The notes under the pieces were generated by a model that made no database searches, had not been told where the DNA came from, and saw nothing but the letters and a program-made list of their open reading frames with translations. Shown here piece after piece: positions 16,116 through 64,000 of a stretch of DNA of 64,000 nucleotides. The stretch's first letter is position 1; every line of letters begins with the position of its first letter. The position numbers and the translations under genes are program-made. Source of the DNA: Sedimentisphaerales bacterium (GTDB lineage: Bacteria > Planctomycetota > Phycisphaerae > Sedimentisphaerales > Anaerobacaceae); assembly GCA_963708075.1 (NCBI GenBank), contig OY970194.1, positions 4,096,001 to 4,160,000 on the forward strand. The letters run 5' to 3'.

Positions 16116-16253
16116 GGATATCATAGTGCCCACGTCGTGCTATTACAGCCTTGCTTGCAGCAACGTCTGCCGCCCCCATCGACACCATTGTCAGGTGCAA
16201 CGCTTATCGCCCTTTACTACATTGAAAGCACCAGATCATTCAGGTGACATGAT

Positions 16254-17243: not shown

Positions 17244-17310
17244 ACCAATATGCAGAGTATCAGAATGATAAGTCCCCACATGGTAACGGTGATAAGGATG
17301 TGATGTGCGA

Positions 17311-18843: not shown

Positions 18844-22195
<3,352 letters not shown>

Positions 22196-46300: not shown

Positions 46301-46340
46301 ACCCTCGGACGACGACACGGAAGATGCACTGCTTCCACAT
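43308..46340 (-). CDS. Large secreted protein with FN3-like repeats, F5/8 type C (discoidin) and C-terminal LamG domain
   Basis: Signal peptide; TYYWRVDEVN twice, WIQFEFDK, GLSEVRF, VVDDFES, WYHMAAV...LYINGE...IDEFYLYNR; RBS AGGAGG. Confidence 0.88.
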   Translation of the reverse strand: MWKQCIFRVVVRGLVLMFGLVLSAPAGAEVLFSDDFAYADRTNLNGIGGWTATDATAHWVLNDDGLGDGGTNSLQYPGITSQDGRLYVKAGSNNIYHALSRPVTGEGNSLYASFLYKPLSIPGTYWFQLDTTGSIQGQLGRIDGKNTNGQVELGCRMRTATVLSKKPIPLGQTALVVMKVTMVPGSNNDTVQLWVNPPVGAPEPAADATAIAETGNDINPATGIIGFSFRVGQSNSGEKEVDLMRLGTTWEDVTSHPYLAAGGPSPGNGAEDIARDAVLSWSPGQLARTHDVYFGTVLADVNAAGRTSPKDVLVSQGQDAATYVPGLLALGQTYYWRVDEVNVPSITKGSVWSFTVEPYAYPITNVTATASSSQADMGPEKTIDGAGLNADDQHSTDVKQMWFSKGTLPNWIQFEFDKLYRLDELWIWNYNQPNENIIGFGAKDVAIEYSADGSTWTPLGGVPVFTRASGSTNYVHDTIVDFGGAPAKYVKLTINSTWGGMAQAGLSEVRFFYVPVQAREPQPAIDATGQELDVTLNWRPGREAALHKVYLSSDPNAVANGTASANTVSTHSFDPTGLNLATTYYWRVDEVNDAARPGVWTGDVWSFSTHEYLVVDDFESCTNDSPKRVFQTWIDGMGFSEDEFFPKGNPGNGTGAMVGYDPTAGNIMETATVHGGTQSMPVSYDSSVAATSEAERTFTDPQDWTGHGIKALMLWFCGNATNTASQMYVKVNGRKVAYDGDATNLLRKPWHLWYISLSQFSGVDLSKVTKLAIGFEGGKGLVFVDDIRLSSQDRQSVTPVKPDTANLLIHYALEGNTNSSAGTLHATAGGTPTYVPGKVGQAIKLNGATDYLMVEGSFTLAEYSAAMWFNVEGGTGTRDLVSIYSGSSHGVLLEITDTGAFRFLHRVPLGTSGGNDMRSNSNYADGEWYHMAAVKSATAIRLYINGEQAATAADSTEFAEVLPRLTIGVLRHDSLSRFFPGTIDEFYLYNRTLQQAEIAYLAGLTKPLDK

Positions 46341-46543
46341 GACCAACCTCCTGCCTTTTACAGACTTTCAGCTCAGCGAACTCTACGCTTATGCGAGCAA
46401 GACACATGGGTCAGGACCTTCGAGGCGGTCCGACTGCACGTTGACACGGCAGGAGTAGGGCATCGATGTGCGCACCCGACTCCTATAGCCTTTATAACAA
46501 ATGAGCCGATCTTAGTCAACGCGTAGCTGACACGAGGCACGGT

Positions 46544-46572
46544 TGAACCAGCGACACACGGATTTTCAGTCC
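46544..46572 (-). repeat. 29-bp tRNA-Phe(GAA) fragment, copy 2 (att-like)
   Basis: Identical to 42640-42668; both are followed on + by a TAAGTCCTT box. Confidence 0.75.
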
Positions 46573-46681
46573 TTGGCTCAGCTCATAAGTCCTTATACAA
46601 TAAGATGTTACAGGCGCACAATTGGCGTTTTTCGAGAGATACAAGTGGATAGCAACTCGGCTACCACTCAGTGACAAGTGG

Positions 46682-47287
46682 CTAACACGTGACGACTGAC
46701 CCACTTTTGACCCCATCGCTCGTTCCGGAGATACTGTTCCAGCCGGGCCCGAGGCTATCAATCTTGATGAGGTCGGCGCTACCTGGAGTGATGAACGTGA
46801 ATGTTGAGGTGCCGGTGGAAGCACCATCAATGAATACGGGCTCAAGGCCGGTGAAGGAAATCAAGGTGGCGCCGACCTGAATCGTGCTGTCGCCGAAGAC
46901 CACGCCCGGAGCGTAAGTCCCCGCAAAAATGCCACTTATGACGGGAGTATCATACCCCCCTGCACCACCGTGGAAGGTGACGGGAATGGGCAGATCGCCG
47001 CGGCTCAAGTCCACGACGAGGGTGTCGTCCGTCTCATCCAAACCCCGGATGATCAGACCACAGATCCCCTCCTCGGCCAACCGTTTCCGCTGGAAGTCCC
47101 ATACATCGATCATCCCTGAAGCTGTCACGGTCAGGATCGAGCCCGCCTGTGGCGGAGGATTCGAAACGTGCAATGTGTCGAGGAGTCGCGACTCGAGAGA
47201 CTCCACGCTGTAGTTCGTCTCGCCATCGCGCGGACCAGCCGCGGGCTGTTTTCTCCCCGAACGCGTTGCCCACCATCGTGCTAACAC
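46682..47287 (-). pseudogene. Truncated N-terminus of a LEPR-XLL-type extracellular protein
   Basis: R/W-rich start then YSVESLESRLL; DDTLVVDLS, FHGGAGGYD, ISFTGLEPV; ends ~110 nt from the att-like repeat. Confidence 0.6.
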
Positions 47288-47442
47288 TGCGAAGAAAGCA
47301 ACCCTTCAGGCTTCTGTCCGGATCGCAGGGTGACAGGACATCCTGCGCAAGATGTTCCGAAAAGGCGTTGCAACCATGCGGAGGCAGTGTACAATCAGAG
47401 TTGATTGGCTTGTGTTCTTGTGTCCAAGATAGGGTACGGCTG

Positions 47443-49308
47443 ATGGCGGACGAGTTGTCTCATACTCCAGAAGATGCCAATGAAGGCTCGCCGCCGCGAG
47501 CTGAAGGACCATCAAATCGAGCGCCAGGTGCCGAAGCGGGACTGGGTCGGTTCTTTACTCAGCTTTTGGCTATGCAATGCCACTGCTGCCGAGCCAAACA
47601 TGGTGCGGTGCTCCAGCTGGATGGCGATAAGACCTTCCGGACAGTGGCCTTGTTTCCGTCGGGGCAGATTGAGCAGGAACAACAGCAATGGCTGCAGCGT
47701 TCTGCGGCGGCAGCGAGCCAGGTATTCGCCGGCGGTGGAGCTGCGGTTGTGCCCGTGGACGGGGACTTGCGAACCCATGCGGTTATTGTGCCCCTTCGAA
47801 TTTCCGGCCACGACCGGCTGTTGGCGACGCTCCTGGTCAAGACGGCCGAAAAGACTGCCTTGGAAGGAGCCAGACAACTGCTCGAACTGACGACGCTTGT
47901 GGTCGGCATGACGTGCGAACACTTGTCCTCGCACGGCAAAGAGACCGCCCTGCAGAAGTTACACAAGGGATTGGAGGTCCTCGCAGGGACCAACCGCCAG
48001 AACCGCTTTCGGGCCGTGGCGATGGCCTTCTGTAATGAGATGGCCTCGCAGTGGCAGTGCGAGCGGGCCAGTCTTGGCTTTCTCAAGGGCCGCTATGTCC
48101 AGGTGAAGGCCATGAGCCATGCCGAGCACTTCAGCCGCAAGATGCGACTGGTGCAGGACATCGAAGCCACCATGGAGGAGTGCCTGGACCAGGATTGCGA
48201 GGTCATCTATCCCTCTTCGGCTGACGCGACTTACATTGCACGAGCGGCCGGTGAGTTGTCGGATCATCACGGCCCAAAGACCCTCATGAGCCTGCCATTA
48301 CGACAGGAGAGCCGGCCCATAGCCGTAGTCACTCTGGAGCGGATTGCCGGCCAGGCATTTACAGATGACGAAGCCGAGGCCATCCGGCTGGCGTGCGATC
48401 TGTGTGCCCCACGACTACTGAACCTGCAACACTACGATCGCTGGATCGGAGCCAGGATGGCCGCCAATGCTCGTCGCGGGTTAGCCGTCGTGCTGGGTGC
48501 CCAGTACACCTGGACCAAACTGGCGGTGATTGGCGGCTTCGTCCTTGTGCTGTTTTTGGTCTTCGCCAAGGGTTGGTACAAAGTCAAAGCTCCCTTTGTC
48601 TTTGAGGCGATCTCTCAGTACAAGATCGCTGCCCCATTCGATGGGTTTATCAAGAGCGTGGGTGTAGAGGTCGGCGACCGCATCGTGGAGGGCCAGACCG
48701 CTTTGGCGGAGTTGGATACAGCCGAGCTGCGACTACAGTTGGCTTCCGCCAAGGCCGAACAGGCCGGCTATCTCAAGCAGGCGGATGCCGCCATGCGAGA
48801 CGGCAAGACCGCCGAGGCCCAGATCGCCCAGGCGAGCGCCGATAGGGCTCAGGCTCAGATGGACCTGCTCAGTTATCACATCAGCCAGGCACGGATTCTG
48901 TCTCCCGTGACCGGCACGCTCGTGACCGGCGATCTCAAGCGCCAGATCGGTGCTCCCGTGGAGACAGGCAAGGTACTTTTTGAAGTTGCTCCCCTGGATT
49001 CTTTGCGAGCCGAACTGTATGTATCGGAGGATGAAGTGTCGGACGTGGCGGTAGGTCAACAGGGTTATCTGGCGACGGCCACCTATCCGGGGGACCGGAT
49101 CGGCTTTGCGGTGGAGCGAGTGAATCCGGCGGCGGAGGTAGTCAGCAATCGCAACGTCTTCAAGGTGTGGGTGAAGCTCTCGGAGAGCCGGCCCTGGATG
49201 CGGCCGGGCATGGAGGGTGTGGCGAAAGTCACGATCGAGAAACGCCCCTACGCATGGATCTGGACGAGGAAGGTTGTCAACTGGATACGGATGAAGCTGT
49301 GGCTTTAG
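47443..49308 (+). CDS. GAF-like domain + HlyD-family membrane fusion protein
   Basis: GAF-like region (LMSLPLR...AVVTLER), single TM, APFDGFI..V.VEVGD, ILSPVTG, MRPGMEG. Confidence 0.85.
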   Translation: MADELSHTPEDANEGSPPRAEGPSNRAPGAEAGLGRFFTQLLAMQCHCCRAKHGAVLQLDGDKTFRTVALFPSGQIEQEQQQWLQRSAAAASQVFAGGGAAVVPVDGDLRTHAVIVPLRISGHDRLLATLLVKTAEKTALEGARQLLELTTLVVGMTCEHLSSHGKETALQKLHKGLEVLAGTNRQNRFRAVAMAFCNEMASQWQCERASLGFLKGRYVQVKAMSHAEHFSRKMRLVQDIEATMEECLDQDCEVIYPSSADATYIARAAGELSDHHGPKTLMSLPLRQESRPIAVVTLERIAGQAFTDDEAEAIRLACDLCAPRLLNLQHYDRWIGARMAANARRGLAVVLGAQYTWTKLAVIGGFVLVLFLVFAKGWYKVKAPFVFEAISQYKIAAPFDGFIKSVGVEVGDRIVEGQTALAELDTAELRLQLASAKAEQAGYLKQADAAMRDGKTAEAQIAQASADRAQAQMDLLSYHISQARILSPVTGTLVTGDLKRQIGAPVETGKVLFEVAPLDSLRAELYVSEDEVSDVAVGQQGYLATATYPGDRIGFAVERVNPAAEVVSNRNVFKVWVKLSESRPWMRPGMEGVAKVTIEKRPYAWIWTRKVVNWIRMKLWL

Positions 49309-49324
49309 GGGGGCAGCGGTTCCC

Positions 49325-51511
49325 ATGGCGGTAGATCGTCCGACATTCCATGAGTCCTGGTACCGCGTGGCGGATCTGCGGCCGAGGCTGCTATCAGGGG
49401 TAAACATCCGGCGGCAGTACTTCCGGGGGCAATTGTGGTATATCCTTGAAAACCCCGCCAATAGCGAATACGCCCGCATCGCAGAGAACGCCTACCGCTT
49501 CATCGGCGCCCTCGACGGCCGAAGGACGGTGGCCGAGCTCTGGCAATTGTGTAACCAGCAGCTCGGCGATGGCGCCCCAACCCAGGGGGAGGTCATCCAA
49601 CTGCTCGGCCAGCTCCACGGGATGAATCTTTTGTATGTGGATTTGCCCCCGGATGCCGAGGGGCTGCTCAACCGCTACAACCGCCGCATCCAGCGACAGG
49701 TCCTGAACTATCTGGCGAACCTGCTTTTCCTGCGGATTCCGCTGATCGACCCTGATGCATTCCTGGAGCGCTGGGTGGGTGTGCTTGGATCGGTCTTCAG
49801 TTGGACTGGCTTTTGCTTGTGGATGGTCTTGCTGGTCGCGGGATTGTATTTCGTCATCGGCAACTACAGCGAGCTGGTTGCCCAGAGTGCCGACGTACTG
49901 GCCCCGGGCAACCTGTTCCTGCTGTACCTGGCCTTCGTCGTCGTCAAGATCTTCCACGAGTTCAGCCACGCCTTCGCCTGCAAGAAGCTGGGGCGGCTCA
50001 ATCGCAGCAGCGGCGAAGTCCACAGCATGGGTGTGATGTTCCTGGTGCTGTTTCCCCTGCCATACGTGGACGCCTCCAGCGCTTGGGCCTTTCGCAACAA
50101 ATGGCACCGGGCGATTGTGGGCATGGCCGGAGTCATGGCGGAACTGGCCGCGGCGTCCGTCGCCGCCATCGTCTGGGCACAGACTTCCACGGGGACTATC
50201 CACATCATTGCCTACAACGTCATCTTCGTCGCCAGTGTTTCGACGATCTTGTTCAACGGCAACCCCCTGCTGAGGTTCGATGCCTACTATGTGCTTTGCG
50301 ATCTGCTGGAGATTCCCAACCTGGCCCAGCGGTCGAAGAACTACATCTATTACCTGGTCAAGCGATATGTCTGGGGCCTTAAGAAGCTCCGGAACCCCGC
50401 CTACGGCCCTGGAGAGACCTTCTGGTTCATCGCTTACGGTCCCGCGTCGACTGTCTATCGCATCTATATCAGCATACGAATCCTCCTATTCCTCAATCGG
50501 CGCCTTCCCGAGGAATTGTTCATTCTTGTTCCGTTGTTAGCGATAGCCGCCATCGTGGGCTGGCTGTTCGCACCGCTGGCGCGATTCATCAGGTACTTGG
50601 CGACAGGCCCTGAGCTTACCCGCAATCGCCGCCGGGCGGTCGTGTCCACTGTGGGCGGTCTGTGCGTGACAGTAGTCCTTATGGGCCTGATTCGCATGCC
50701 GGACCATTACCGTATCGAAGGGATCGTCGAGCCCGCTCATCTCGCCCTGATCCACGCAGAAAGTGACGGCTTTGTCACCGGTTTTCTCCCATCCGAGTCG
50801 GTTGCCTCGCCAGATGGCCAGTCCCTTGTACAGGCAGTCAATCGGGAGTTGGAGGCGGAGAAGGCGAGCCTGCTGGCGGAGCGACGTGGCCTGGAGGCGA
50901 GGCACCGTCTGGCTGAGACCCAGGAGACCGCCGCGGCACAGATCATCGCCGAGCAGATCGACGCTCTCAATGAAAGCCTTGCCCGCGTCCAGTGGCAACT
51001 GGATAACCTGAACTTGAAGCCGCCGTTCAAAGGCATCTGGGTGGCCCCGGAGATCGATCGCACCAAAGGCACATACCTGAAACGGGGTGAAAGAATCGGC
51101 TTCGTCGGCAGCCTGGAGGATCTGATCATTCGCGTGACCGCCGGGCAGGATGTCGCCGCTATGATCTTTGAGCAGGCACACAAGACCGTTGAGATTCGGG
51201 TCAAAGGCCGGCCGGACAGGACCTTCACAGGCCAGATCGAGAAGATCTTCCCCGCCGGCAGCGATGAGCTGCCCTCTGAGGCCTTGAGCTATGCCGCCGG
51301 TGGTGACGTGCCCACGCGTTCACCAACGCCACAGGATAGAACCGCGGCAGAGAAGTTCTTCGAGATTCGCATCAGGCCCGTGGCATCGGACGCTTCGGCC
51401 TTATTCACGGGCCAGCGGGTAGTAGCCAGGCTCACCATGACAAGCAAATCGCTTCTGGCCCAGTGGTGGCAGTCGGGCAGGCGGCTGTTCCAGAGGAGGT
51501 TCCACATCTAA
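49325..51511 (+). CDS. PqqD/RRE-like - M50 (site-2) metallopeptidase - HlyD-like fusion
   Basis: N-terminal LDGRRTVAEL...LGQL; HEFSH; PYVDASSAW; NGNPLLRFDAYY; C-terminal hairpin and barrel. Confidence 0.85.
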   Translation: MAVDRPTFHESWYRVADLRPRLLSGVNIRRQYFRGQLWYILENPANSEYARIAENAYRFIGALDGRRTVAELWQLCNQQLGDGAPTQGEVIQLLGQLHGMNLLYVDLPPDAEGLLNRYNRRIQRQVLNYLANLLFLRIPLIDPDAFLERWVGVLGSVFSWTGFCLWMVLLVAGLYFVIGNYSELVAQSADVLAPGNLFLLYLAFVVVKIFHEFSHAFACKKLGRLNRSSGEVHSMGVMFLVLFPLPYVDASSAWAFRNKWHRAIVGMAGVMAELAAASVAAIVWAQTSTGTIHIIAYNVIFVASVSTILFNGNPLLRFDAYYVLCDLLEIPNLAQRSKNYIYYLVKRYVWGLKKLRNPAYGPGETFWFIAYGPASTVYRIYISIRILLFLNRRLPEELFILVPLLAIAAIVGWLFAPLARFIRYLATGPELTRNRRRAVVSTVGGLCVTVVLMGLIRMPDHYRIEGIVEPAHLALIHAESDGFVTGFLPSESVASPDGQSLVQAVNRELEAEKASLLAERRGLEARHRLAETQETAAAQIIAEQIDALNESLARVQWQLDNLNLKPPFKGIWVAPEIDRTKGTYLKRGERIGFVGSLEDLIIRVTAGQDVAAMIFEQAHKTVEIRVKGRPDRTFTGQIEKIFPAGSDELPSEALSYAAGGDVPTRSPTPQDRTAAEKFFEIRIRPVASDASALFTGQRVVARLTMTSKSLLAQWWQSGRRLFQRRFHI

Positions 51512-53497
51512 ATGGCGGCCCTCTCCCACGTAAGCTGGAAGACGCTCGATCAGGGCCTGCAGGCGAAACCCCTGCCCCAAGGCGCAGACGCCGCTTGGCA
51601 TGCAGGAGCGGGCATGCTAAGTCGATGCCTCCCACGACAGCGGTGGTTCCTTCGCCGGGCCCGGAAAATTGCGGAGCTGGATACGCAGTTCTCCGCCCTG
51701 ACGGACCACAAGCTGCGAGAAGAGGCCACCGGGCTTCGACAGGTGTTTCGGCTGGGCCGGGACAAGGCAGACGACTTGGATCGGGCATTTGCCATCGTGC
51801 GGGAGGTTGCCCTGCGGCAGATCGGTGAAAAGCCTTTCCCCGTCCAGATAGCAGGAGCTTTGGCTCTGGCCAAAGGCTGTGTCGTAGAGATGGCTACGGG
51901 CGAGGGCAAGACTTTAAGCGCTACACTGCCCGCGACGGTCGCTGGCTGGCGAGGCCAGGGCTGTCACATCATCACGGTCAACGACTACCTGGCCAAGCGG
52001 GATGCCGAATGGATGGGCCGCATTTATCAGTTTTGCGGGCTTCGGGCCACCTATATCGAGCAGGGCATGGCCCCGGAGGATCGCAGGAACGCCTACGCAG
52101 CGGATATCACCTACTGCACGAACAAGGAAGTGACGGCGGATTTCCTGCGGGATCGACTGCTTCTGGGCCGGTTGCGGGGGTCCAGTTCCGCCCTCTTATC
52201 CAAGATTGCCTCCGACGGCAGGTCCCCTCTGGATCGTCTGGTCCAAAGAGGGCTGCAGTGGGCAATTGTCGATGAAGCGGACTCCATCCTTGTCGATGAA
52301 GCCGTAACTCCTTTGATTATCTCCGGACCCGCTCCCAATCCCGAGCAGACGCAAGCCTTCTGCCAGGCGGTGAAGATTGCGGAAAGTCTCACCCCTCCAA
52401 GAGATTACTCGGTCAATCCTCGCTACCGGGAGGTGGAACTGACCGCCGAGGGACGCCGGCGTCTGGCAGATTTGGCGGCGCCTTTGCCAGGGATCTGGCA
52501 AGGCGCCCGCCGCCGCGAGGAGATCGTGACGAAGGCCCTCGTCGCCCAGCAGCTCTACCTCAAGGATAAGCACTACATCGTCAGCGATGGCAAAGTCGTC
52601 ATCGTGGATGATTTCACCGGCCGCATTATGCCGGACCGCTCCTGGCGGGATGGATTGCACCAGGCGATCGAGGCCAAAGAGGGGCTGGAGGTCACCGCCT
52701 GGAAGGATACCTACGCACGAATCAGCTTTCAGCGGTTCTTTCGATCGTACAAGCACCTGGCCGGCATGACAGGCACGGCCCAGGAGGCCGCCGGCGAGTT
52801 CTGGCAGATCTACAATCTGCCCGTAGTGACGATCCCGACGAATCGGCCGTGCATCCGGAGGGTACTGCCGGATATCGTTCTATCCGGCAAAGAGATCAAA
52901 TGGCAGCGGCTCGTACAGGAGATTCGTAAAGTTCACGATAACGGCAGGCCGATCCTCGTGGGAACACGAAGTGTTCGAGACAGTGAATACCTGAGCATCC
53001 TGCTAACAGCCGAGCATCTGGATCATCAGGTGCTTAATGCGGTCCGCCATCGTGAGGAGGCCCAGATCGTCGCTGAGGCGGGTCAACCCGGCAGGATTAC
53101 CGTGGCGACGAACATGGCCGGCCGAGGCACCGACATCAAACTCGGTCGGGGCGTGGCTGAACTTGGGGGTCTGCACGTGATTGCCGCTGAGCGAAATGAG
53201 TCCGGCCGGATCGACCGCCAGCTCTTCGGCCGGTGTGCCCGCCAGGGCGATCCGGGAAGTGCCCAGGCGATAGTGTCACTGGAGGATGAGTTCGTCTGCC
53301 GCTACGCAACACACCTTGCCGGCCACTTCAAACGCCGCCACGCTCAAGCCTCGGGAGACCTTTCTTCCATCCTCGCCAGGACAACATTTCATCTGGCCCA
53401 GTACCGCGCCGACAGATTCGCCCTGAGCCAGCGTAAGGCGGTCATGCGGGCCGATCACTGGCTCGATGAGACCATCGGCTTTGCCGGTAGGGCTTAG
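51512..53497 (+). CDS. Short SecA paralog (DEAD motor + PPXD, most of C-terminal scaffold/wing absent)
   Basis: EMATGEGKT, TVNDYLAKRD, VDEADSILVDEA.TPLIISG, GLHQAIEAKE, GMTGTA, ATNMAGRGTDI, RIDRQLFGRCARQGDPG; only 661 aa. Confidence 0.9.
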   Translation: MAALSHVSWKTLDQGLQAKPLPQGADAAWHAGAGMLSRCLPRQRWFLRRARKIAELDTQFSALTDHKLREEATGLRQVFRLGRDKADDLDRAFAIVREVALRQIGEKPFPVQIAGALALAKGCVVEMATGEGKTLSATLPATVAGWRGQGCHIITVNDYLAKRDAEWMGRIYQFCGLRATYIEQGMAPEDRRNAYAADITYCTNKEVTADFLRDRLLLGRLRGSSSALLSKIASDGRSPLDRLVQRGLQWAIVDEADSILVDEAVTPLIISGPAPNPEQTQAFCQAVKIAESLTPPRDYSVNPRYREVELTAEGRRRLADLAAPLPGIWQGARRREEIVTKALVAQQLYLKDKHYIVSDGKVVIVDDFTGRIMPDRSWRDGLHQAIEAKEGLEVTAWKDTYARISFQRFFRSYKHLAGMTGTAQEAAGEFWQIYNLPVVTIPTNRPCIRRVLPDIVLSGKEIKWQRLVQEIRKVHDNGRPILVGTRSVRDSEYLSILLTAEHLDHQVLNAVRHREEAQIVAEAGQPGRITVATNMAGRGTDIKLGRGVAELGGLHVIAAERNESGRIDRQLFGRCARQGDPGSAQAIVSLEDEFVCRYATHLAGHFKRRHAQASGDLSSILARTTFHLAQYRADRFALSQRKAVMRADHWLDETIGFAGRA

Positions 53498-55341
53498 AAT
53501 GACGGGGACATCTCCCAGGGCGGCTCGGAGATCGTCCGCCGTTCAGAGCCCTCCTGAGGCGGCTCTGGATCAGGCAGGCTCTGCAGAACCGAAGACAATG
53601 ATGCTTCCACCATGCGCAGGTCAAGGATCGTTCCGGCCGCCTGGGCAAGCTCGGCCAAGGCGATATTGAGTTCCACGATCGCACCGATCTCGCCCCGCTG
53701 AGCCTGGGCATAGGTCTCCTGGGCCTGTAATTTCACCAGCAAAAACTCCGGCGTGAGCTTTTCTCGAATGGCCTCCGATTCCTCCAGCGTCTGCAGGTGT
53801 GCCCGGGCCGCCTGCACGGCCTCCTGCTGTACCTTGAGCTCATCGAAGCTCGTCTGGACTCTCCTGGCTCTCTCGCGCACCTGCACCGCTACCTGGTCAG
53901 CCGTATTATGCAGAATCGAAGTGGCCTTTCGCCGCTCCCACTGCCGGCGGAGCCATTCGGCCTGTCGGCTGCGATTACCCAGCGGATACTCCAGGTTCAG
54001 CCCAACCGCGTAGCTTGTATATTGGCCATCCTCGATCTGATCGTGTGCTTCGAACCTGTCCTCGCCCAAACCTCGAGCCCTCGCTGAGCCCACCAGGTCC
54101 AGCCGGGGCATGCGTTGATTCTTCGCTACATCGATGTTGATCTGGGCGACCTGAACGCCAAGGTGGGCCTGCTGAATCACGGGATTTCGCTGCATCGCCG
54201 TCGCCAGCGTGCGATCCACCAAGGTTGCAGACTCCGGCAACTCCTGCGCGACCTGCGGCTCACTCGCTGGTATGATCTCGAGCTTGCTGGCCGTATTGAC
54301 CTGTGGATCAGAGATCAATCGCACAAGAGCATCCTGCACGTCCACCGCCTGCTTTTGCGACTCCAACAGCGTCGCCTCGCGGCTCTTGGCGTAGGCCTCA
54401 GCCTGCTTGATCTGGACATCCGTAGCATCGATGTCCCGCCGACCCTCTACCTTCTTGAGCGTCTGATTCGTCTCGTCCACAAGCTGACGCTGGATCTCGG
54501 CATCCTGCCGGGCCTGGACCAATCGCCAATAGGCCGTAATCACAGCCGCCGAGACAGCTTCCGCTTTCTCACGAAAACCAAGGAGCGATGCCTCATAGTT
54601 GAGCTTGGCCACATTCACGCCGGCCAGATTCACCTGCGTGCCGGCATCACGGAGCAAAGGCTGGCGAAGCTCAAAGATGACCATCGGCTCATAGCGAGTC
54701 GGTAACGTTCGCCCAACCAGATCATCCCAGATATGGCTTAGACCGTAGCTGGCTGACCACTCAGAGCCCAGGATGGTCCTTTGCTTTACCCCGGACTCGA
54801 ACAATCGTGTCTCTGCCTCTCCGGGCTCAAAGAAGCTGTTGCGAGGATTGTCCTGATCGTCATAGTTCACGCGGCTAAACGCCGTCGGGTCAAAATCCCC
54901 CGCCGCCTTGGCGACCTCTTGCCGCACGATCTCCGGATCGAAGCTGACGATTCGAATCTCAGGGCTATTGGCCAAAGCGCGCGTGATGGCCTGCTCGATC
55001 GTCAGCGTCGCGGTCTTCTCGCCGTTATTCGGGTCCTCAATTATCTGCAAGGGCGGGATGGCTTCTTGCTCAGTCTCGACCGGCTTGAGCATGCTCAACG
55101 GATCAAGCGATGGCGGTTCCTGTGCGTTGAGGCGCTGCTGTGGCCCACTGCCGGCTAACCGCTTCTGGTATGTGCTCACTTTCGATCCATCGCTGACTCG
55201 ATCGGAAACGCAGCCGCCAAATACGACCAGACAACCGATCAGGATAGGTGAGTATGCCCCCCAACCACTCACGTGCGACAGGCTGAGCCATCCTGTCCTT
55301 CGGCGGGACTGTCTTGGTGTCCTCTGTCTCAACTGCATCAC
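53494..55341 (-). CDS. TolC-family outer membrane protein (lipoprotein)
   Basis: Lipobox FGGC; LTIEQAITRALANS, LRQPLLR, AYWRLV, MPRLDL, LEYPLGNR. Confidence 0.9.
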   Translation of the reverse strand: MMQLRQRTPRQSRRRTGWLSLSHVSGWGAYSPILIGCLVVFGGCVSDRVSDGSKVSTYQKRLAGSGPQQRLNAQEPPSLDPLSMLKPVETEQEAIPPLQIIEDPNNGEKTATLTIEQAITRALANSPEIRIVSFDPEIVRQEVAKAAGDFDPTAFSRVNYDDQDNPRNSFFEPGEAETRLFESGVKQRTILGSEWSASYGLSHIWDDLVGRTLPTRYEPMVIFELRQPLLRDAGTQVNLAGVNVAKLNYEASLLGFREKAEAVSAAVITAYWRLVQARQDAEIQRQLVDETNQTLKKVEGRRDIDATDVQIKQAEAYAKSREATLLESQKQAVDVQDALVRLISDPQVNTASKLEIIPASEPQVAQELPESATLVDRTLATAMQRNPVIQQAHLGVQVAQINIDVAKNQRMPRLDLVGSARARGLGEDRFEAHDQIEDGQYTSYAVGLNLEYPLGNRSRQAEWLRRQWERRKATSILHNTADQVAVQVRERARRVQTSFDELKVQQEAVQAARAHLQTLEESEAIREKLTPEFLLVKLQAQETYAQAQRGEIGAIVELNIALAELAQAAGTILDLRMVEASLSSVLQSLPDPEPPQEGSERRTISEPPWEMSPSF

Positions 55342-56216
55342 GGCTGTCGCCCCGCCTGTGGCTGTCCATCCCCTGCGAATGTCACCAGCACGTGCTCTCC
55401 CGCCGGTCTGCCCATTGGGTTCGGCACTTCGATGCGCACCCGCAGTGTGCCACTGGCGGCATCGGCCACTGCCGCAACAAAGATCACACGCCCCTCGGCA
55501 GCCGACGTCGCCTTGCCCGAGTCGGTGAACTGTACCCGAGTCGTCCCGCCCGTCTTTAAGTTGATCCCCTCAGCCAGTGGGACAGGGGCGTCGATCCACA
55601 ACGGGTCAGTCTGCACGACCCGAATCACATCCGCCAAGGCGTTCGCCGACTCGCCCACTTCGACATCGACCTTTTCGATCCACCCATCGACAGGGCTTTT
55701 GAGCTGCATGTTGTCAACGCGGATTCTGTACTCCTCGTACTTGCGGCCCGCCTGCTCATGCTCGAATTTGGCCAATTCAAAGGATAACTGCGCAATGGTC
55801 ACATCCAGCTTGGCGTGCTCGACCTCAAGGAATGTGGCGGCATTGCTGGCAGCGGCCTTCTGGAGCTTCTCCAGATCGACTTTCTTTTGCGCCAGCGATG
55901 CTTCGCTCGCCCGCATCTGCGTGAGGTCCTCGCTCTGGGCCTTGAGCTGGGCAAGCTGAACCTGCTCGGCGGCATCATCCTGCCGGACCAGCACCTCACC
56001 GACCTTTACCGAATGCCCCTCCTTGAACGGCACGCTCGCAATCCGCCCCGGCTGCACGAAGGAAAGGGTAATATCCGCGCTCGGCCGCGTGATAGCTCGA
56101 ACGCCTGTGCCCATTCCGGCGGATGTCACGCCGCAAAGCAATATCACTATGAACGACAACGAAAACAGCTTATGTATTCCATTCGTGACCATCAGCCAAG
56201 CCTCTATGCCATACAT
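55338..56216 (-). CDS. RND/HlyD-type periplasmic adaptor (MFP)
   Basis: PGRIASV.FKEG..VKVGEVL, LKSPVDG, ADAASGTLRVRIEVPNP. Confidence 0.9.
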   Translation of the reverse strand: MYGIEAWLMVTNGIHKLFSLSFIVILLCGVTSAGMGTGVRAITRPSADITLSFVQPGRIASVPFKEGHSVKVGEVLVRQDDAAEQVQLAQLKAQSEDLTQMRASEASLAQKKVDLEKLQKAAASNAATFLEVEHAKLDVTIAQLSFELAKFEHEQAGRKYEEYRIRVDNMQLKSPVDGWIEKVDVEVGESANALADVIRVVQTDPLWIDAPVPLAEGINLKTGGTTRVQFTDSGKATSAAEGRVIFVAAVADAASGTLRVRIEVPNPMGRPAGEHVLVTFAGDGQPQAGRQP

Positions 56217-56400
56217 CCAACAATTCGTTACTGTACATCACGACAGGAGATACTGCAAGTGAGTTCGCACAAGAAGTAGTGTAATGAGTTGTGTGTAAGC
56301 TGGGCTGGGCAGGGATAGGGGCCACCCGTCTGGAGCAAAGGCGAGCGTAGCGAGCCGTAGCGCAAGGCGGGTAACAGCGGCCATGAAATAGGGGTACGTA

Positions 56401-56596
56401 CTTGCTCTGTAGAGAAGGTCCCTGAGAAGTAGGATGAGAGCGATGTTGTGCGTGAGCACAAGAAGGAGCATATCGCAACACTGGGACCAGTACTGCCTCG
56501 CCCGCAGGGCCGACCCATAGTTGCGTCTGATCATGCTGATCACCGTCTCGGCTTGCCAGCGCTGGCGGTAGAGTTTGCGTCTAAAATGGCGTAGGG
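56401..56596 (-). mobile_element. IS5/IS4-like DDE transposase 3' remnant
   Basis: LYRQRWQAETVISMIRRNYG...LTHN...LYRA (YxxRWxxE signature). Confidence 0.7.
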
Positions 56597-56728
56597 TGCA
56601 AATATTATCTGATTACGCCGGAGACGATCCTATCCTGGTATCGGCAACTCATCGCCGAGAAATATGATGGCAGCAAGAACTGTAAGAACCCCGGCCCGCC
56701 TAAGATCTCGCAGGAAATCATCGGCCTT

Positions 56729-57313
56729 GTGATCCAATTCAAAGAGGAGAACCCGCGCTGGGGCTACACCCGAATTCGGGATTACCTCGTCTACCTCGGA
56801 CACAAGATCGGCGAAACCACGGTTAAGAACATCCTCATCGAGAACGGCTTAGATCCAGAGCCAGACCTGACCCGCAAGACCACCTGGAAGGAGTTCCTCA
56901 AGAGCCACTGGAATGTGCTGGCCGCCTGCGATCTGTTCTCGATTGAGCTACTGGTCAAAGGTAAACTTGTCCGCTACATGGTGCTCTTTGCCATCAATCT
57001 GGCCACTCGCAAAGTGGAGATCCTGGGCGTCGGTGCGCAACCGAATGGTCCCTGGATGGAGCAAATCGCCCGCAATGCCAGCGGCGAACACGGCTTCCTG
57101 GCCGGCAAGAAGTACCTGATCCATGATCGGGATCCACTGTACACAGACAAGTTCGACAGCATCCTCAAAGCTGCCGGGGTGGAAGCTGTGAAACTACCAC
57201 CGCAAAGCCGCGTGACAGGCACCCTGCCACGTCATCTTCGCGGGGACAGTATGCGCCCGGGTATGATCTGGGCATCAGGAAACTCCTTCTATGCGATGCT
57301 CAATGCTGGATGA
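56729..57313 (+). mobile_element. Integrase-core (rve) transposase remnant
   Basis: ENPRWGYTRI, WKEFLKSH, ACDLFS, LIHDRD, KLPPQS; final catalytic Glu region missing. Confidence 0.75.
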
Positions 57314-57463
57314 TCTACGATTCCGTCCGCCCTACCGACTCATCTTTCCTGGCGATTTCAGTGCTAACAGTCTGAAATCGCTAGCGTTATGCTTGGATGA
57401 GTATTTGCACCATACGGGTTCTCCGCAACGCTATCGTTCGAAGGGGCAATATCGATCGGCAAT

Positions 57464-60400
57464 CTATTCCACGATCCCGGGAGCACCGACGTAACGCAGG
57501 TGAATCAGGCCGGCGTCGAGTATCGCGCCGATCGTGCCGTGATAGCGGAACGTAATCCAAGAGACGCCGTCGGCCGTCGCACGGAGAAGAGCCGTGGTGG
57601 GAACGGACCAATTGAATTCGAGGCGGTTCATGAAGGTGCCGGTTCCGCCCGGCGCCTTCAGCGTGATCCTGACGCCCGTCACATCGCTGGCGAGGTCGTT
57701 TAGGGCGTCCAGGATGGAGGCGTCGCTCGCGGTGAGCGCGACATCGCCACCGCGCGATTGGACCAGGCCGACAAGCAGGTCCCCGGTGGTTTCGGTGAGA
57801 ACGACCCAATTGTCGACATTGACGTCGATATGGCCGCCAGTGCCCAGGAGGTCCGTTCGGGAACGCACCGCAATCGTTGACGGCGTCAGCCCGGCTACCC
57901 CGCCAACCTTCGCGCCGTCCACGTCCTCAATGATGATATTGCCGCCCGCAATCAGGCCGGCCACAGTCCGATTGTCGGTCGGCAGATTGAGATTGCCGCC
58001 GGTCTCCAGATCGAGGTCGCTGGTCTCCAGATTGAGGTTGCGGAAGTCATAGATGCAGTTGACAGGCGTGACGGTCGCCCCGCCGGTCGCCCCGCCGTTG
58101 GAATCGGGACGGAAGAAGTTGCTAAAGATCCAGTCGCGGGTTCCATCCGCAGGCGGGGAACTTGGATAATCAAAATTGGCGCCCTCGTTCAACGTGGTGA
58201 CGCGAACACCCGCCCCCGCCCCAGCCTCAGGATCCTTCTCGGCGTCCTGAAGGAGCAGGTCAATGGTTCCGCCTGCCGTCAGCGAATCGATGGTCGCAGT
58301 GAACTCGGTCACCGCCGAGTCATCGCGCAGAACCGCTTTCAAGTCGAGGTAAATGTCTCCGCCCGCGACACCCACGACATGCTGAGCGGCCGTCAACTGA
58401 TGCACGGGAGCAACGTCCGAAGCGGACGGGTCCAAGGTGATGACATCACCGCCCGGTGTGGCGAGCTGAAGGGTGGTGCCGTCGGCGGACAGGATCACCG
58501 TGTAGTAGTGCCCGTTCTCCAGCCCTTCGATTGGTGTCCCGGGGGTCCCGTTGGCGTTGACGGCCTGGTACTGCACGAGCTGCCCGTTGAAGAATGGGAC
58601 ATAACCCAGGAACAGCACATTGGCTGCGCCACAAACCCCGTTGGCGAGGAAGGTCGTGGTCGCCCCGGGGTAAGTCAGGTCGACATTGACCCGCGGCGCA
58701 CTGCTACCGATCCCGCCTGCCGGGGCCCGAATGTCGAGGATGGCCGTGCGGATGAGAGAGGTGCGGCCGTTACCGTTCGGTGCATCGGCATCCTCTGCCA
58801 CGTCACGTCCGCGCGCCGCGGTGATGTTGCCGCCGCTGTTGTGGATGACGGTGCGGCCGATGGGGTTATTGATCGTGCCGTTCAGGATGATATTTGAGTT
58901 GGTCTCATTGATGATCTGCACCAGCGCCGGCCCCCCCGTGCGGCTGAGCGCGAATGTCAGCGTGACGTATCTGCTGTTCAGGTCCACCAGCGGATTCTCC
59001 GTGGTATTGACCACGTTGATGTTGTTGATCTTGAGCGGCATGCTCGAGTAGTTCGTGATCAGCACCCGGCCGAGCGTGCCACTGAGGTCCCATGTGCTCC
59101 CCTCGCCGCTGATCCCTACCGCGTCTCCGTCGACCCAGGCGTCATTGAAATAAACCTGGCCGCTGCCGCCGTTTCCGATGTCATTGACGAAGATCTCGGG
59201 CTCGGAAACGATCTGGCCCGATGTCTGGGATGCGTTTTCGCTGGTCCACACGCTGACGTTGGTGGCCTTCGTAATCCACCCGTACTCGTCGATCACCAGC
59301 TCCGCGCTCTGGCCCGAAGAGATGTGCACATCGGCGTTCCAGACGATTCTACGGTCCTGGTTGTCGTTCAGCTCGGTGTCTGCATGACCAGCCGCTATCG
59401 CCTTCTTCTTCACCTTGGCATCGGCAGCGATTTTCACGTTGTAGTTCGTCGTATTGACGTACAGCGCCAGTTGATCCAGGGTATTGGGGTCGGTGGCGTC
59501 GCCGACCACGTTATCTGCCAGATGGTCGCGCAAGATCGCCACCGGGTTCCATAAACCAGGGTCGCTGTAATTCTGCAGACTCAGGTCAAATTTCTGATTT
59601 TCGGCTGCAACCAGGTCGCTATCGGTCTGTAAGACGCCGATGTACTCGTAAACGTTGCCGCTGGAGACGCGCACCGTCATTCCCGGAGCAAGCGCGTTGA
59701 CCATGGTTCCGGCCCCCTCAGAATCCTCGGAGGTCGTAACTTCGACTTGTTTCCACTGGTCTGCATCCTCGTAGGCCTGGAGACTGAGGTCAAATTTCTG
59801 ACTGCCGTCTATATCCGGGTCGCTATCGGTCTGTAAGACGCCGATGTATTCGTACACGTTGCCGGCAAGACCACCGCTGGCGATGGCTACCATCATGCCC
59901 GGAGTAAGCGCGTTGACCTCGTCGAGGATAGTTCCGTCGCTCACGCGCGGACCGGCGGTCACCTGGGCACGTGGGGCCCCCGTAGCTGCATCGGGGCCGT
60001 CGGCCACTACGCTGGAAGTCAATGTCGTAGTGTTGTTTCCGTCGGAGTCGACCCAGCCGAATAAGCCCATGACGCGACCGTAGGAGTAGGCGTAGGTATC
60101 GACGTTATTGAACGTGGCCTCGAGGTCGACACCGCGATAGCCCGTAAGGCTTGACCCGCTGCCCAGCAAAACCTTGTTCTCGGCGTCGATGTCCATATCG
60201 GTAAAATCATCCGATACGCCGACAAAGCCGGCGCCGTATCCCTCGGCGTCGGCATGGACATCCATGTTGCTGGTTGTCGCGCGCAGGGCCACGGTGCTCG
60301 CGATTACGACTGCGCTTCCTCGAGTGTCACCAGGCTCTGGCTGCCGTCAAGGATGTCCATATCGGTTTCGGCATAGCCGCCGCCGCCGAAACCGCGTCCA

Positions 60401-63400
60401 TCGGCATAGGAATGAGTCAGGGCGTCGACATTGGCGTCGGAAGTGATTCCGACATGGCCTGCGGCCGCGATCTTGGCTCCGCCTTCCAGGTACGCCTGGG
60501 TGTCGTAGGACAGTACAGACGTCATGTAGGCTCTCACGTCGGCCGCGGCGCCGCCCGCTTTAGCCGTGGCGGTGCCGCTGGTAACATGGTTCGACCAGGC
60601 ATCGACCGTCACGTCGCCGCCGCTGATGATGTTGGCGCCGGCCGCAATGTAAGCGTAGGTGGTGCTCGTTTGATCGGTGGTGGCCCAGGACTTGCCGATG
60701 CCGACAAAACCGCCCGTGGAGTTGGTGGTGTTGGCGCGGGCATTGGTCTCCGATGCGGCCAGAACCGAGATATCCCCGGTGACTCTCAGCGACCCTGACG
60801 CAATGTACGCGGTGACCGTGACATCGGCGTTTGAATTGGATTCGTTTTTCGACTGGCCATAAACGCCGCCGGCGGAGCCCTTGCTGTCCGCGCTGGACAC
60901 GGTATCGCCCGGAGGCGCGACCAGTTCGGCGAGATCCACTCCGCCCAGGCCTGTGATCCAGTGACGCGTCGTGCCGTCAGGCAAGGTGCCGCCGGGCAAG
61001 GTGGTGGTCGTACCGTCAGGCAGGGTGATGGTAGTGAGGTTAATGCGGAACTGATGGGTTGTGCCGGACTCTGCTGTCCCAAGGTCGACGCTTTGTGTTC
61101 CAACCCAGTGCGTGGTGGATGCATTCAGCCCCGTCGTGCCCAGGGTGATCGCGGCGCCTCCTGGGGTGCTGGCAAGCTGGTAACTGCTCTTGGTCGCATT
61201 AATAATGTAGTAGGTCTGGCCACTTACCAGGCCGTGAATCGGCGCGTTGCGTGCGAGCACCACGCTGTGCACGGAGCCATCGGCCTTGTTCGGCCCCAAC
61301 TCGATCGGCGTCTTGCCATCGACAGTCTTGCCGCTGATGGTCGCCGCCGTACCGAAGTTGCCGGTGATATAGAGGGTGCCATCGACGATGCTGTCGATCA
61401 CGTAGTCTCCGTTATTGTTGCCCGCGCCGCCGATCCTGATGCTTTGGCCCGGAGCGAAGCCGTAGGCGCTCCAGGGCTGGCCGCTCATGTACGCCTTGTT
61501 GCCGTTCGCCTGCGGAACAAACGTGATTACTCCCGTAACGGTTGGCGCCAGTTTGATCGTATGCTCGGTCTTGTTTATGACGCGGTAGACGCAGTCGTTG
61601 TTCAGTCCGCCGATCGCCGTGGGTTCGCCGATCATTGAGCTCACGTGATAGACAACATAATCCCCATTGGTGAAATGATGATCGATCCCAACCAGACTAC
61701 TATTGCCGTTGGAATCGATCACCTCTTCGAAGAAGACGATGTTGTTGGCGCCCGGATTGTCGGTGACCTCCGGCTTATCACCCAACGTGACGTCGGCATC
61801 GACCTGGGAGCTGGCGAAGGTGAGCGTCTTTGGCGCTATGTAGGTCACCGCCTGCCCGTTGACGAAGTTGTTGGGGTCGATGATCGTCTTACCGTCGGGT
61901 TGCACGTTGCTCACGATGAAGCTGTTGAGAGATGCCCCCGGCGCCACCAACTGGATACTGTTCGCATCGATCACGCGCACCGTATACACGCCGCCATCCG
62001 TCAATCCGCCAATAAGCTTGCCCAGATCAGACGCATGATAGACCACCTGGTCGCCATTCAGGAAGTTGTGGGGCGTGGCAAAGGTGATGGTCTCGTTGTC
62101 CGGGTTGACGACGCCGAAATCAATGGCGTCAGGGTCGGCGGTGAACCCGGCGCCGAGCGCGATGGTGTCGTCGTCGACGTAGATCACGCTGTACTGGCGT
62201 GCGCTGGTCTCGCCTTCAGCATCCGTATAGGTCTGGTCCAGGCCGCCGATTTCAATGAAGTCAGTCTTGTATTCGATCACGTCGCCTGTTTGCAGATTGT
62301 GGTTCGATACGGTCAGAGTGTCTTCGATATCCCCGACAGCCTCAATGTGGTAGTCAGGCTGGCCGGGCTGCATCGCCGGCTTGGCGATCGCACTGACGTT
62401 CACCGAGCCGGCCTTGATCAGCGAGCCACTGCCGATGTAGGCGGTCACATCGGGCGTCACATTGACCGTGGCCTTCGACCCGCCGACGCCACCAGCACCT
62501 TTGGCTACGCCCTTGGTGGAAGCGTCGGCCTCGGGGTTCTCCTTCGCTTCGACGGTGATGTTGCCGGACACGTAGATCCTGCTGTTGTCGCCGATGTGGG
62601 CGTCGAGGGCTGGGCTGACGGTCGACGTTGACTCGTTGTCACTGGGGCTCCCCTCGGCGGCAAATCCTTTTGACACCGCCTGAGATGTGGCCTTGGCTTT
62701 ATCGACGCCGAGCGCCCTGACCTTCAGGCTGACGGCGCCCGGCCCAGTCTCGGAGCCGATAGTGCCGTCCATGCGTGCCTTCACAATGGGACTGCCGATC
62801 GCAGTGGCATGGCTCTCGCCGAGTCCAACGAAGCCGCCGTTCTGGCCGGCCGCGGTAGCCTCGGGAGTAGTCGCCGAGCTCGAAATCACCGCGATGGCGT
62901 CCCCGGCGCTGAGTGTCGCATCGCTATCGACCCAACTCTCGAGGTACGGAGTCTCCGTGGCTATGGCAGTCGCACCGCCTTTAGCGAGGAAGCTGCCTGA
63001 CCTCGAATAGGCGATAGCTTCTGCACCCGAGCCTAACAACACTGCATAGCTGTCTTCCGCGCTCAGGTCCTGGTTGTATATGGACTTGAGGTTGATGTCG
63101 CCGTTTGTCGAAACGATGTTGCCACCGCTGATCGAGCTCGACACCATGCTGGCAGGTGTTGCCGCGTTGGGAGCGATCGTCGCCGTTGCCACGGGCGCAC
63201 ATCGGGCCTCGCCGATGGAGAAAGAAACGGAATTTCCATCCGCCAGGGCTGCCGCACTGGCAGCCAGCGTCGAGCCGACCGAAATGGTGCCGTCAGCCTT
63301 GGCCTGCCGAGCATCCGCATAACCACCCAGCCGGCTTTCGACTGTCGGCGTCACGTTGGCGATCGCTGCCGTTATGACGTCGGAGGTCGCGGTGAAGGCG

Positions 63401-64000
63401 ACCGACAGAGCTTTGCCCTCCGTCGTGGAATCTGCATCGACCGACGAGATGGCGTTGATCTCGACCTTGCCTCCGATATCGAGTTCAACCGGGTCGGCGT
63501 AGGCCCGCGTCGTGGTCGTCACCGTCGCGTCGCTGGTCGCGCTGCCAACGGCACCGGCGAAGACTCCGGCGACGGCCGCAGCAGAAGCGGTCGACATGCT
63601 GGTGACCGTCGCATCTTCCGTGGCGGTGATCGTCAAGTCGCCGGCGCCGGTCGTGACGATCTTCGCTTGCGTGGCATACGCCTCCACGTCGTTGTCGATC
63701 GTGTTGACGGCTTTTGACAGGCTGATAGCGCCGGCGCCGCCGAGCCCGATCGCCGCGGCGAACGAGATCGCGTTGGCAGTGGCGCTGACCATAGACGTGT
63801 CGCTGGCGATCATCGTCACGATACCGGCGGCATCGACGAGCGTGGCTATGGGGTTGGAAGCGGTGTCTGCGACAAACGCCTTGACGCTCGTGTTGATCCT
63901 GTTCTCGATGAGAATACCCGCCCCGGCGGCGGCGACCGCGATCTGTCCCCCGGCGGCGGACGCCACAGTGGCCCGGATATCGGCCGTGATCGTCGCGCCT
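57464..64000 (-). CDS. Giant repetitive secreted/adhesin-like protein, 3' part (starts beyond window); one-base frameshift near 60315
   Basis: Frame is open to the window end; A/G/S/T-rich beta repeats; repeated H.F.NGD.V.Y...IGGL..G..Y.V modules; adding one G gives VTLEEGAVVIASTVALRAT and joins the 1220-aa and 942-aa ORFs. Confidence 0.85.

Follow-up and report, generated by a model that had tools for sequence, protein, structure and literature searches.

A candidate secretion locus with an RRE-M50 protease, membrane fusion proteins and TolC, but no ABC transporter, beside a giant LEPR-XLL gene in a Sedimentisphaerales genome

We analyzed a 64,000-nucleotide stretch (the window) of the genome of a Sedimentisphaerales bacterium (GenBank assembly GCA_963708075.1, contig OY970194.1, here C1); the window is C1:4096001-4160000 of a 7.5-Mb single-contig genome, and positions are window-relative unless marked C1. 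Its last part holds a candidate secretion module (Table 1), in which the genes for a GAF-HlyD adaptor, a protein combining a RiPP recognition element (RRE) with an M50 protease and an HlyD-type domain (RRE-M50-HlyD, or M50-HlyD), and a short SecA paralog lie on the plus strand and converge with minus-strand genes for a TolC-family protein and a stand-alone membrane fusion protein (MFP). An earlier interpretation of the bare letters, here called the sequence-only reading, had described this as a type I-like locus without an ABC ATPase. Open reading frame (ORF) listing and family-profile scans (Pfam, NCBIfam) found the gene set in that place and layout, with the three plus-strand genes tightly packed and a giant repeat gene flanking the module on one side. 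Two parts of a type I system, an MFP adaptor and a TolC-family channel, are both present in the locus. The TolC protein has a lipobox-like N-terminus, as read from its sequence, and the stand-alone MFP begins with a hydrophobic anchor or signal according to hydropathy. GAF-HlyD consists of a GAF-containing N-terminal part, one transmembrane (TM) helix at residues 355-373, and then an MFP domain (Pfam, hydropathy), which would place the GAF-containing part in the cytoplasm and the MFP domain in the periplasm.

Table 1. Features of the module and its flanks (window-relative positions)
Feature	Position	Strand	Remarks
Relic of a leader-bearing giant gene	46682..47287	-	201 aa, ...VESLESRLL|DTLHV...
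GAF-HlyD adaptor	47443..49308	+	621 aa from ATG; Pfam GAF, HlyD_3, HlyD_D23
RRE-M50-HlyD	49325..51511	+	728 aa; 16-nt gap after GAF-HlyD
Short SecA paralog	51512..53497	+	661 aa; abuts M50-HlyD; SecA_DEAD, PP_bind, P-loop
TolC-family outer-membrane factor	53494..55341	-	Pfam OEP; TIGR01844 below cut-off; lipoprotein-like N-terminus
Stand-alone MFP	55338..56216	-	292 aa; TIGR01730 110.9 bits vs cut-off 94.9
IS481-like transposase fragment	56729..57313	+	NF033577 weak match; paralogs elsewhere in genome
Giant gene (likely cargo), 3' part	57464..64000, on past window end	-	pieces 57464-60292 and 60304 onward

As the sequence-only reading had held, neither an ABC ATPase nor an RND pump was found in the locus by ORF listing and family scans. 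The nearest ABC ATPases belong to other gene sets: one of ABC-2 type lies at 14040-16115, 32 kb off, and the nearest outside the window is a MacAB-type set about 54 kb past the end of the module, with no cognate transporter just beyond the window. No HlyB-type transporter was found in this genome, which holds only two ABC_membrane proteins, neither with an adaptor match nearby, and whose C39 content is one stand-alone 247-aa frame. Likewise, none was found in 107 related loci (described below), where the six ABC-like flags are five lone ABC ATPase domains (nucleotide-binding domains, NBDs) and one SMC protein. Hence, the ABC transporter with fused TM domain and NBD that defines type I secretion is missing here. 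The ABC-2 type exporter within the window adjoins a radical SAM-SPASM gene (14040-18270, 32 kb from the module), and the pair is possibly a small peptide-modification cluster.

The likely cargo of the module is the giant gene, the start of which lies about 15 kb beyond the window end, at approximately C1:4175400 (window-relative 79400). Its product begins GRLAKWW and carries the leader VESLEPRLLLS at C1:4175227-4175262, so that the LEPR-XLL motif suspected at the start of this gene is indeed there. NF012209, the 24-residue family model of this motif, gave no match in this genome at the default E-value, which was too strict, and E<=0.03 was used; the leader then scored 21.6 bits in the genome search, over the 17-bit cut-off, and 15.9 bits, just under it, when the whole protein was scanned. 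By the genome search the giant gene is a member of this family, which is defined by a single N-terminal motif on a giant repeat protein. The product carries beta-rich LktA_tand_53-type repeats and one RTX block at residues 554-588.

The giant gene appears in the assembly as three frame pieces of 4416, 2041, and 942 aa. Short-read contigs carry one extra base near 60314 (three runs) and near window-relative 66245 (two runs), each contig at a depth below 5, and a same-genus homolog ends alike; we conclude on these grounds that both breaks are probably assembly errors and that the gene is likely to be a single, intact reading frame of about 7,290 codons. A frameshifted pseudogene was considered and rejected as unlikely, given the extra base at both breaks. 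We also rejected truncation of the C-terminus by the insertion sequence (IS) fragment: the homolog ends at the same residue as this protein (...YVGAPGIVE), and the C-terminus is genuine. Further genes are split in this assembly, namely, a cheB/cheR fusion (window 1603-4348), lepA (window-relative 120910-122733), and an MsbA-like exporter (C1:154224-156004), which suggests that indel errors are common in it.

The divergent ORF on the other side of the module, which the sequence-only reading had taken for a LESRLL-leader gene, stands in the position described but is not an intact leader gene. It aligns to giant residues ~182-373 with 63.5% amino acid and 76.5% nucleotide identity, its motif is joined directly to a segment about 145 residues downstream, and it is 3'-truncated, stopping at 201 aa. 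The deletion junction shows no difference from a short-read contig covering 46887-47328, and NF012209 matched the ORF neither in the protein scan nor in the genome search. Judged from these alignments, the ORF is an internally deleted, truncated relic of the giant's N-terminus and not the substrate. In a relative (L003), a long LEPR giant gene occupies the relic's divergent position.

The link between the module and the LEPR-XLL tag was examined in two samples of 301 genomes each, one from Planctomycetota (79 with and 222 without M50-HlyD) and one from the phylum of a Nitrosomonas metagenome-assembled genome (MAG), which we take to be Pseudomonadota in GTDB (77 with and 224 without). M50-HlyD thus occurs in about a quarter of the genomes sampled in each phylum. 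The NF012209 model, which does not derive from the alignments made here, was applied at E<=0.03, a level at which 0 of 14 control genomes matched. It was found in 40/79 M50-positive versus 3/222 M50-negative Planctomycetota genomes, one of the negatives being a 60-aa frame with a stop, and in 55/77 versus 2/224 genomes of the second phylum, both of the latter in frames shorter than 180 aa. Altogether, 5 of 446 M50-negative genomes have the tag, three of these matches in frames below 180 aa. The Fisher p values of 4e-24 and 2e-39, respectively, overstate the association, as related genomes are not independent. The tag lies within 60 kb of M50-HlyD in at least 30 of the 55 double-positive second-phylum genomes, a lower bound from hand-matched rows only. 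The co-occurrence of M50-HlyD with LEPR-XLL proteins that the sequence-only reading implied is therefore strong in two phyla, and the module very probably handles LEPR-XLL giants.

We also inspected 107 loci of about 20 kb each, comprising 100 around M50 matches chosen for long contigs (60 from 112 Planctomycetota matches and 40 from second-phylum matches) and 7 found with SecA. The latter go back to a contig scan with the SecA paralog, which returned mostly canonical SecA; 8 of its 80 loci (L003-L009 and L013) were taken as paralog loci, and L009 (3.5 kb) was excluded later. GAF-HlyD is present in 83 of the 107 loci, MFP in 67, and SecA in 50, and a leader-bearing long ORF starts inside 26. 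From these counts, M50-HlyD is the constant part of the module and SecA a feature of one subtype.

The RRE-M50-HlyD protein combines an RRE fold (residues ~18-105), a site-2 metalloprotease part (H211, E212, H215, and D319), further TM helices up to residue 455, and an MFP domain (~457-716). A structure model from a 76-row alignment reached a pLDDT of 86 and replaced a single-sequence model of a 90%-identical homolog (pLDDT 39.6). In this model the N-domain has strands 27-33, 36-43, and 48-53 and helices 54-61, 69-83, and 87-99 (DSSP), and it superimposes on the RREs of lasso-peptide systems (6jx3, Z 9.5, root mean square deviation [rmsd] 2.8, 83 residues aligned; 5v1u, Z 9.4, rmsd 3.0, 82 aligned). 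The model thus agrees with the sequence-only assignment of an RRE, a three-stranded sheet followed by three helices, although no PqqD match to M50-HlyD was found in Pfam or NCBIfam. The modeled protease core resembles RseP (7w6z, Z 9.6) and SpoIVFB (8vjl, Z 9.2), and the C-terminal part resembles MacA/MexA (Z 14); the Foldseek match list was dominated by this MFP domain. Pfam PF02163 scored below its cut-off (19 versus 27.2). Nevertheless, the protein carries the site-2 metalloprotease signature, HExxH and a downstream NxxPxxxxD within membrane helices, in the form of HEFSH and NGNPLLRFD. HExxH occurs in 65/65 ORFs, and across 108 sequences the conservation of H211, E212, H215, N311, D319, D326, and N332, zinc ligands and catalytic glutamate included, rounds to 100%. 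The catalytic motifs are thus intact, and proteolytic activity is a prediction.

We then modeled M50 residues 1-432 in complex with zinc and a 40-aa segment of the giant that bears the leader. The complex scored 0.63, versus 0.01 for the best control; the mark applied to such scores was reached by 116/157 solved and 2/215 mismatched pairs, counts that hold only roughly here. The runs share at least 59% of their contacts, with a partner pLDDT of 44 to 48. The model places leader residues 11-16 along RRE strand 48-53, L15 and V12 making some of the best contacts; also in the interface are W254 and N332, both conserved in the family, and residues 208, 211, 212, 215, and 317-319 of the active site. 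In the prediction, V-E-S-L-E would pair with strand beta-3 of the RRE, and P-R-L-L-L-S-A would run into the zinc site. The model therefore supports, as a prediction, the leader binding by the RRE that the sequence-only reading had suggested.

Common to the leaders is [LM]-E-x-R with hydrophobic residues behind it, and a Sec h-region is missing: of 25 listed N-termini, 23 stay below 1.5 in their best 11-residue hydropathy, and the starts of the other two may be mis-set. RRE-dependent processing of daptide precursors requires positions -7 and -4, as shown for the MpaB RRE (bioRxiv 2023.03.08.531785). Aligning the giant's leader in register with the daptide leader ELExMEAP puts V12 at -7, L15 at -4, and the invariant R18 at -1, and by this analogy the leader would be cleaved at or just after the invariant arginine. 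We consider it likely that the RRE binds the leader and that M50 cuts it.

Walker A, DEAD, and motif VI are all intact in the short SecA paralog, and its PPXD is present; its nearest named relatives come from Phycisphaerae/Sedimentisphaerales MAGs. It has no SecA_SW match, and its alignment to B. subtilis-type SecA stops at residue ~604, before the wing domain and the two-helix finger/IRA1, both of which are missing. The earlier claim that it lacks most of the C-terminal region used to engage SecY is thus upheld. The finger inserts into SecY and represses the ATPase in canonical SecA (PMC3101351), and the paralog could be an unrepressed clamp-ATPase without the canonical pusher. Truncation is usual in these proteins: 27 of 30 paralog ORFs end 67 to 117 residues after motif VI, one of the others is cut by a contig end, and two (650 and 635 aa) were unmatched by the motif pattern. 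As a separate observation, the canonical SecA of this genome (C1:2546294-2548099) has 555 residues after motif VI in a 1243-aa frame, which agrees with the rearrangement of SecA_SW in planctomycetes that was described in 2015 (PMC4452313).

The distribution of the short SecA, defined as frames below 800 aa or seen in the loci at E<=1e-170 (the six weakest matches being unlisted), follows that of the module. It occurs in 49 of 301 Planctomycetota genomes, 48 of the 79 M50-positive versus 1 of the 222 M50-negative ones, and all 16 second-phylum genomes with a match are M50 positive. A short SecA at G101:C16:16587-18413 lies in a genome without an M50-HlyD match, and one at G300:C1:2401120-2402982 lies far from the M50 locus. 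Thus, the short SecA depends on the module and not the reverse; the dependence is one-way, because nine of ten M50-positive genomes rechecked without the strict threshold have only canonical SecA. The co-occurrence expected from the sequence-only reading holds in this direction only, the paralog being nearly confined to M50-positive genomes but missing from many of them.

In an M50 tree (FastTree with midpoint rooting and without a clade test), 46 of the 47 tips in the clade that includes the window have SecA next to M50, and so do 38 of 39 when the window and the SecA-fetched loci are left out; two loci that were SecA negative by the hidden Markov model cut-off but SecA by phmmer (L146 and L159) were counted as positive. 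M50 clades without an ATPase in the locus still adjoin tagged giants, often with DUF4347. One separate M50 clade (L164-L184; also L132, L135, and L136) has a shorter GAF-HlyD (~440 to 490 aa) and no ATPase in the locus, and its cargo carries an 'LEPRxMFDG' or 'EERIVLD' leader followed by DUF4347 in the three of three scanned; it looks like an ATPase-less subtype. Since SecA-less M50 clades also adjoin tagged giants, the proposal that a SecA motor energizes export fails as a general rule. The paralog is not the universal motor, and a motor role is possible only for the subtype of the window, where we regard it as a tentative assignment, somewhat short of probable.

These results can be joined into the following mechanism. 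The RRE-M50 subunit would bind and cut the short N-terminal LEPR-XLL leader of the adjacent giant, M50-HlyD and GAF-HlyD would contribute the TM helices that make up the passage through the inner membrane, and the three MFP domains would bridge to TolC, with the cargo passing N-terminus first and probably unfolded. In the clade of the window, the short SecA may serve as an ATP-driven clamp or feeder for the cargo, with this machine and not SecY as its docking site. As other clades do without it, energy there must come from elsewhere, be it canonical SecA, translation, the proton-motive force, or extracellular folding. On balance we favor, by a modest preponderance, an ABC-less, TolC-dependent export machine with a leader-binding and leader-cutting RRE-M50 subunit and its giant cargo next door as the best explanation of the locus; one-step, N-terminus-first passage without SecY we judge slightly better than an even proposition.

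Several observations weigh against this picture. The short SecA is absent from about 31 of the 79 M50-positive Planctomycetota genomes at E<=1e-170, nine of ten such genomes have only canonical SecA even on the looser recheck, and SecA is adjacent in only 5/61 loci outside the clade of the window and in 0/21 lower-scoring second-phylum loci. Where present, the paralog is without the two-helix finger that canonical SecA uses to push. TolC lies inside only 22 of the 107 loci, and 39 of the 79 M50-positive Planctomycetota genomes have no NF012209 match, although in at least one of these (G090) a wider leader profile finds variants. The complex score may stem from likeness to solved structures of RREs with leaders and of site-2 proteases with substrates, the fold of the partner is uncertain in the complex, and the prediction does not report which bond lies at the zinc. 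The reported periplasmic retention in partner-free cells and the proposed C-terminus-first export of LEPRxLL giants of Chlorobium (bioRxiv 10.64898/2026.03.19.712371) fit the alternatives better than a strict one-step route. Export, cleavage, and ATP use by the module are all predictions from sequence.

The alternative that survives best is a two-step route, in which the leader is an unusual targeting tag and RRE-M50 its leader peptidase, SecYEG carries the giant across the inner membrane with either the short or the canonical SecA assisting, on the pattern of SecA2-only systems, and the MFPs and TolC export it from the periplasm. Many module genomes have canonical SecA only, which would suffice for this route, no pump lies in the locus, and periplasmic retention of giant symbiosis proteins has been reported (bioRxiv 10.64898/2026.03.19.712371). 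Against it stand a paralog without the wing domain and the SecY-inserting finger, leaders without a hydrophobic h-region, and an arrangement expected of a trans-envelope conduit, in which inner-membrane proteins with cytoplasmic domains carry two of the three MFP domains. We regard this route as unlikely.

A second alternative follows a logic like that of LapA/LapG: the giant would be threaded C-terminus first, its leader held by the RRE as an anchor, and the adhesin freed by an M50 cut upon a GAF signal, with the short SecA regulating or feeding the process. The leader-binding model also fits this, a GAF sensor-type domain is present, and RTX repeats, a hallmark of type I secretion, occur in the cargo; for the Chlorobium LEPRxLL giants, release upon contact and export C-terminus first have also been proposed (bioRxiv 10.64898/2026.03.19.712371). 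Yet C-terminal export would call for an HlyB-type ABC transporter, of which this genome yielded none, and the RTX block lies near the N-terminus rather than the C-terminus, although no search for a shared C-terminal signal was made; such tethering and release seems improbable to us. Finally, it is very unlikely that the module exports no giants but is a small RiPP-like peptide-processing or regulatory site-2 protease unit, with the giants leaving by some ordinary type I system encoded elsewhere. Daptide peptide clusters do contain RRE-site-2 protease fusions (bioRxiv 2023.03.08.531785), and some genomes with tagged giants, such as that of Chlorobium chlorochromatii, carry many ordinary type I genes (bioRxiv 10.64898/2026.03.19.712371), but the tag is nearly confined to module genomes, no HlyB-type transporter turned up here, and the neighbors are giants with no tailoring-enzyme cluster in this locus.

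The surroundings of the module include several features of their own. The IS481-like fragment sits between the giant gene and the MFP-TolC pair and is outside the machine. A 27- to 38-nt element at 46542-46579, with four more copies nearby (window-relative 42640, 81337, 87654, and -8410), is probably an IS end; this element and the IS fragment at 56729 lie on either side of the module, which may account for the relic and the rearrangement. A 1012-aa protein (43308-46346) has a signal-peptide-like N-terminus and F5/8 and LamG domains; it carries no LEPR leader and is therefore probably Sec exported and unrelated to the module. Further off, a 1046-aa fusion of AMP-binding, ACP, and class I/II aminotransferase domains (18844-21984) would, by domain content, be a lipid- or sphingolipid-type starter enzyme, and a 1180-aa HD-CE domain protein (window-relative 83561-87103; L002:7564-11103) lies beside an integrase gene upstream of the giant gene. 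A promoter and terminator scan gave counts at chance level only.

The module itself is real and was previously known from computation only. Kamneva, Poudel and Ward described a conserved 'secondary SecA_DEAD' locus with a five-gene core in 2015, proposing SecA in place of the ABC ATPase and M50 as the pore, and reported it in Methylobacterium extorquens AM1 (PMC4452313), which is a laboratory organism, so that genetics is feasible. The sequence-only reading had likewise mentioned secondary SecA_DEAD proteins noted computationally beside type I components in PVC bacteria. The locus studied here belongs to this module, with a short SecA without SecA_SW, an adjacent M50-HlyD, GAF-HlyD, HlyD, the OEP that is optional in the module, and no ABC transporter; the difference is that the 2015 module is SecA centered, whereas our counts make M50-HlyD the constant part and SecA a subtype feature. 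Its main text mentions no cargo, leader, RRE, or leader cleavage, and nine of its 19 supplementary files contain no cargo terms, while other tables or figures may list giant neighbors (PMC4452313). The core module and the idea of SecA as ATPase and M50 as pore are thus already published, and the cargo link is absent from that main text; we found no paper joining the LEPR-XLL tag, the RRE, and this module in a literature search that mostly did not cover subscription journals. Linking this module to LEPR-XLL giants would give an orphan machine its substrates and the motif a function. Some of the largest bacterial proteins known are of the LEPR-XLL kind, and the exported symbiosis proteins of 'Chlorochromatium aggregatum' belong to these. 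The reading also predicts recognition and cleavage sites that are testable with a short peptide, suggests an N-terminal secretion tag for biotechnology, and raises the question of what powers export in the ATPase-less subtype.

The 'Chlorochromatium' case offers a close parallel. The LEPRxLL giants Cag_663 and Cag_665 of Chlorobium chlorochromatii leave the cell, tolC lies between their genes, and a horizontally acquired secA has been noted in this organism; the authors saw no known transport signals and proposed export C-terminus first through SapC/TolC/HlyD, and the main text of the preprint mentions no peptidase (bioRxiv 10.64898/2026.03.19.712371). These proteins share with our giant the N-terminal motif family and a nearby tolC.

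Among named families, the one closest to M50-HlyD is NF041824 (daptide RRE-protease), which it matches at 149 bits against a cut-off of 300 and to which it therefore does not belong; no daptide tailoring genes are among the ORFs of the locus. The daptide RRE-intramembrane peptidase DapP/MpaP removes an ELExMEAP leader (bioRxiv 2023.03.08.531785). Both proteins have an RRE fused N-terminally to a leader-removing site-2 protease (a predicted role in our case), and ELExMEAP is in register with V-E-S-L-E-P-R, its essential positions matching the top model contacts V12 and L15. Here, in contrast, the protease carries an MFP fusion and probably acts on a giant protein instead of a short peptide.

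A dedicated second SecA serves giant serine-rich adhesins in the SecA2-SecY2 system. Accessory SecA2 systems (SecA2-only and SecA2-SecY2) are alike in having a second SecA for special cargo, but the paralog described here is no member: all SecA2 NCBIfam models score below cut-off, no SecY2 is among the ORFs of the locus, the scaffold/wing/finger region is missing, and the neighbors are TolC and MFPs. Giants of Omnitrophota, according to a 2023 preprint, contain wing-less SecA domains of their own, which is a different arrangement.

Comparators from type I secretion are HlyB-HlyD-TolC, the giant-adhesin systems LapBCE and SiiCDF, and the bacteriocin exporters with a C39 leader peptidase (peptidase-containing ABC transporters, PCATs). 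With type I systems the module shares the TolC duct, MFP adaptors, and giant repeat or RTX cargo, and with PCATs the proposed coupling of N-terminal leader cleavage to export. It differs from type I secretion in having no ABC transporter and in its three MFP domains, two of them fused to the M50 protease or the GAF region, and from PCATs in an RRE and a zinc site-2 protease instead of C39 and in an N-terminal tag on a cargo of multiple thousands of residues. Whether this amounts to a distinct and widespread secretion class, in which an RRE and a site-2 protease, a logic borrowed from RiPP leaders, pick giants by their LEPR-XLL tag for one-step, N-terminus-first export through M50, MFPs, and TolC without ABC or SecY, one subtype using a finger-less SecA motor and another no dedicated ATPase, is a close call that we place slightly on the doubtful side. 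As predicted, the module would work like a leader-processing type I exporter, yet it falls outside both type I secretion, for want of an ABC transporter, and the accessory SecA2 systems.

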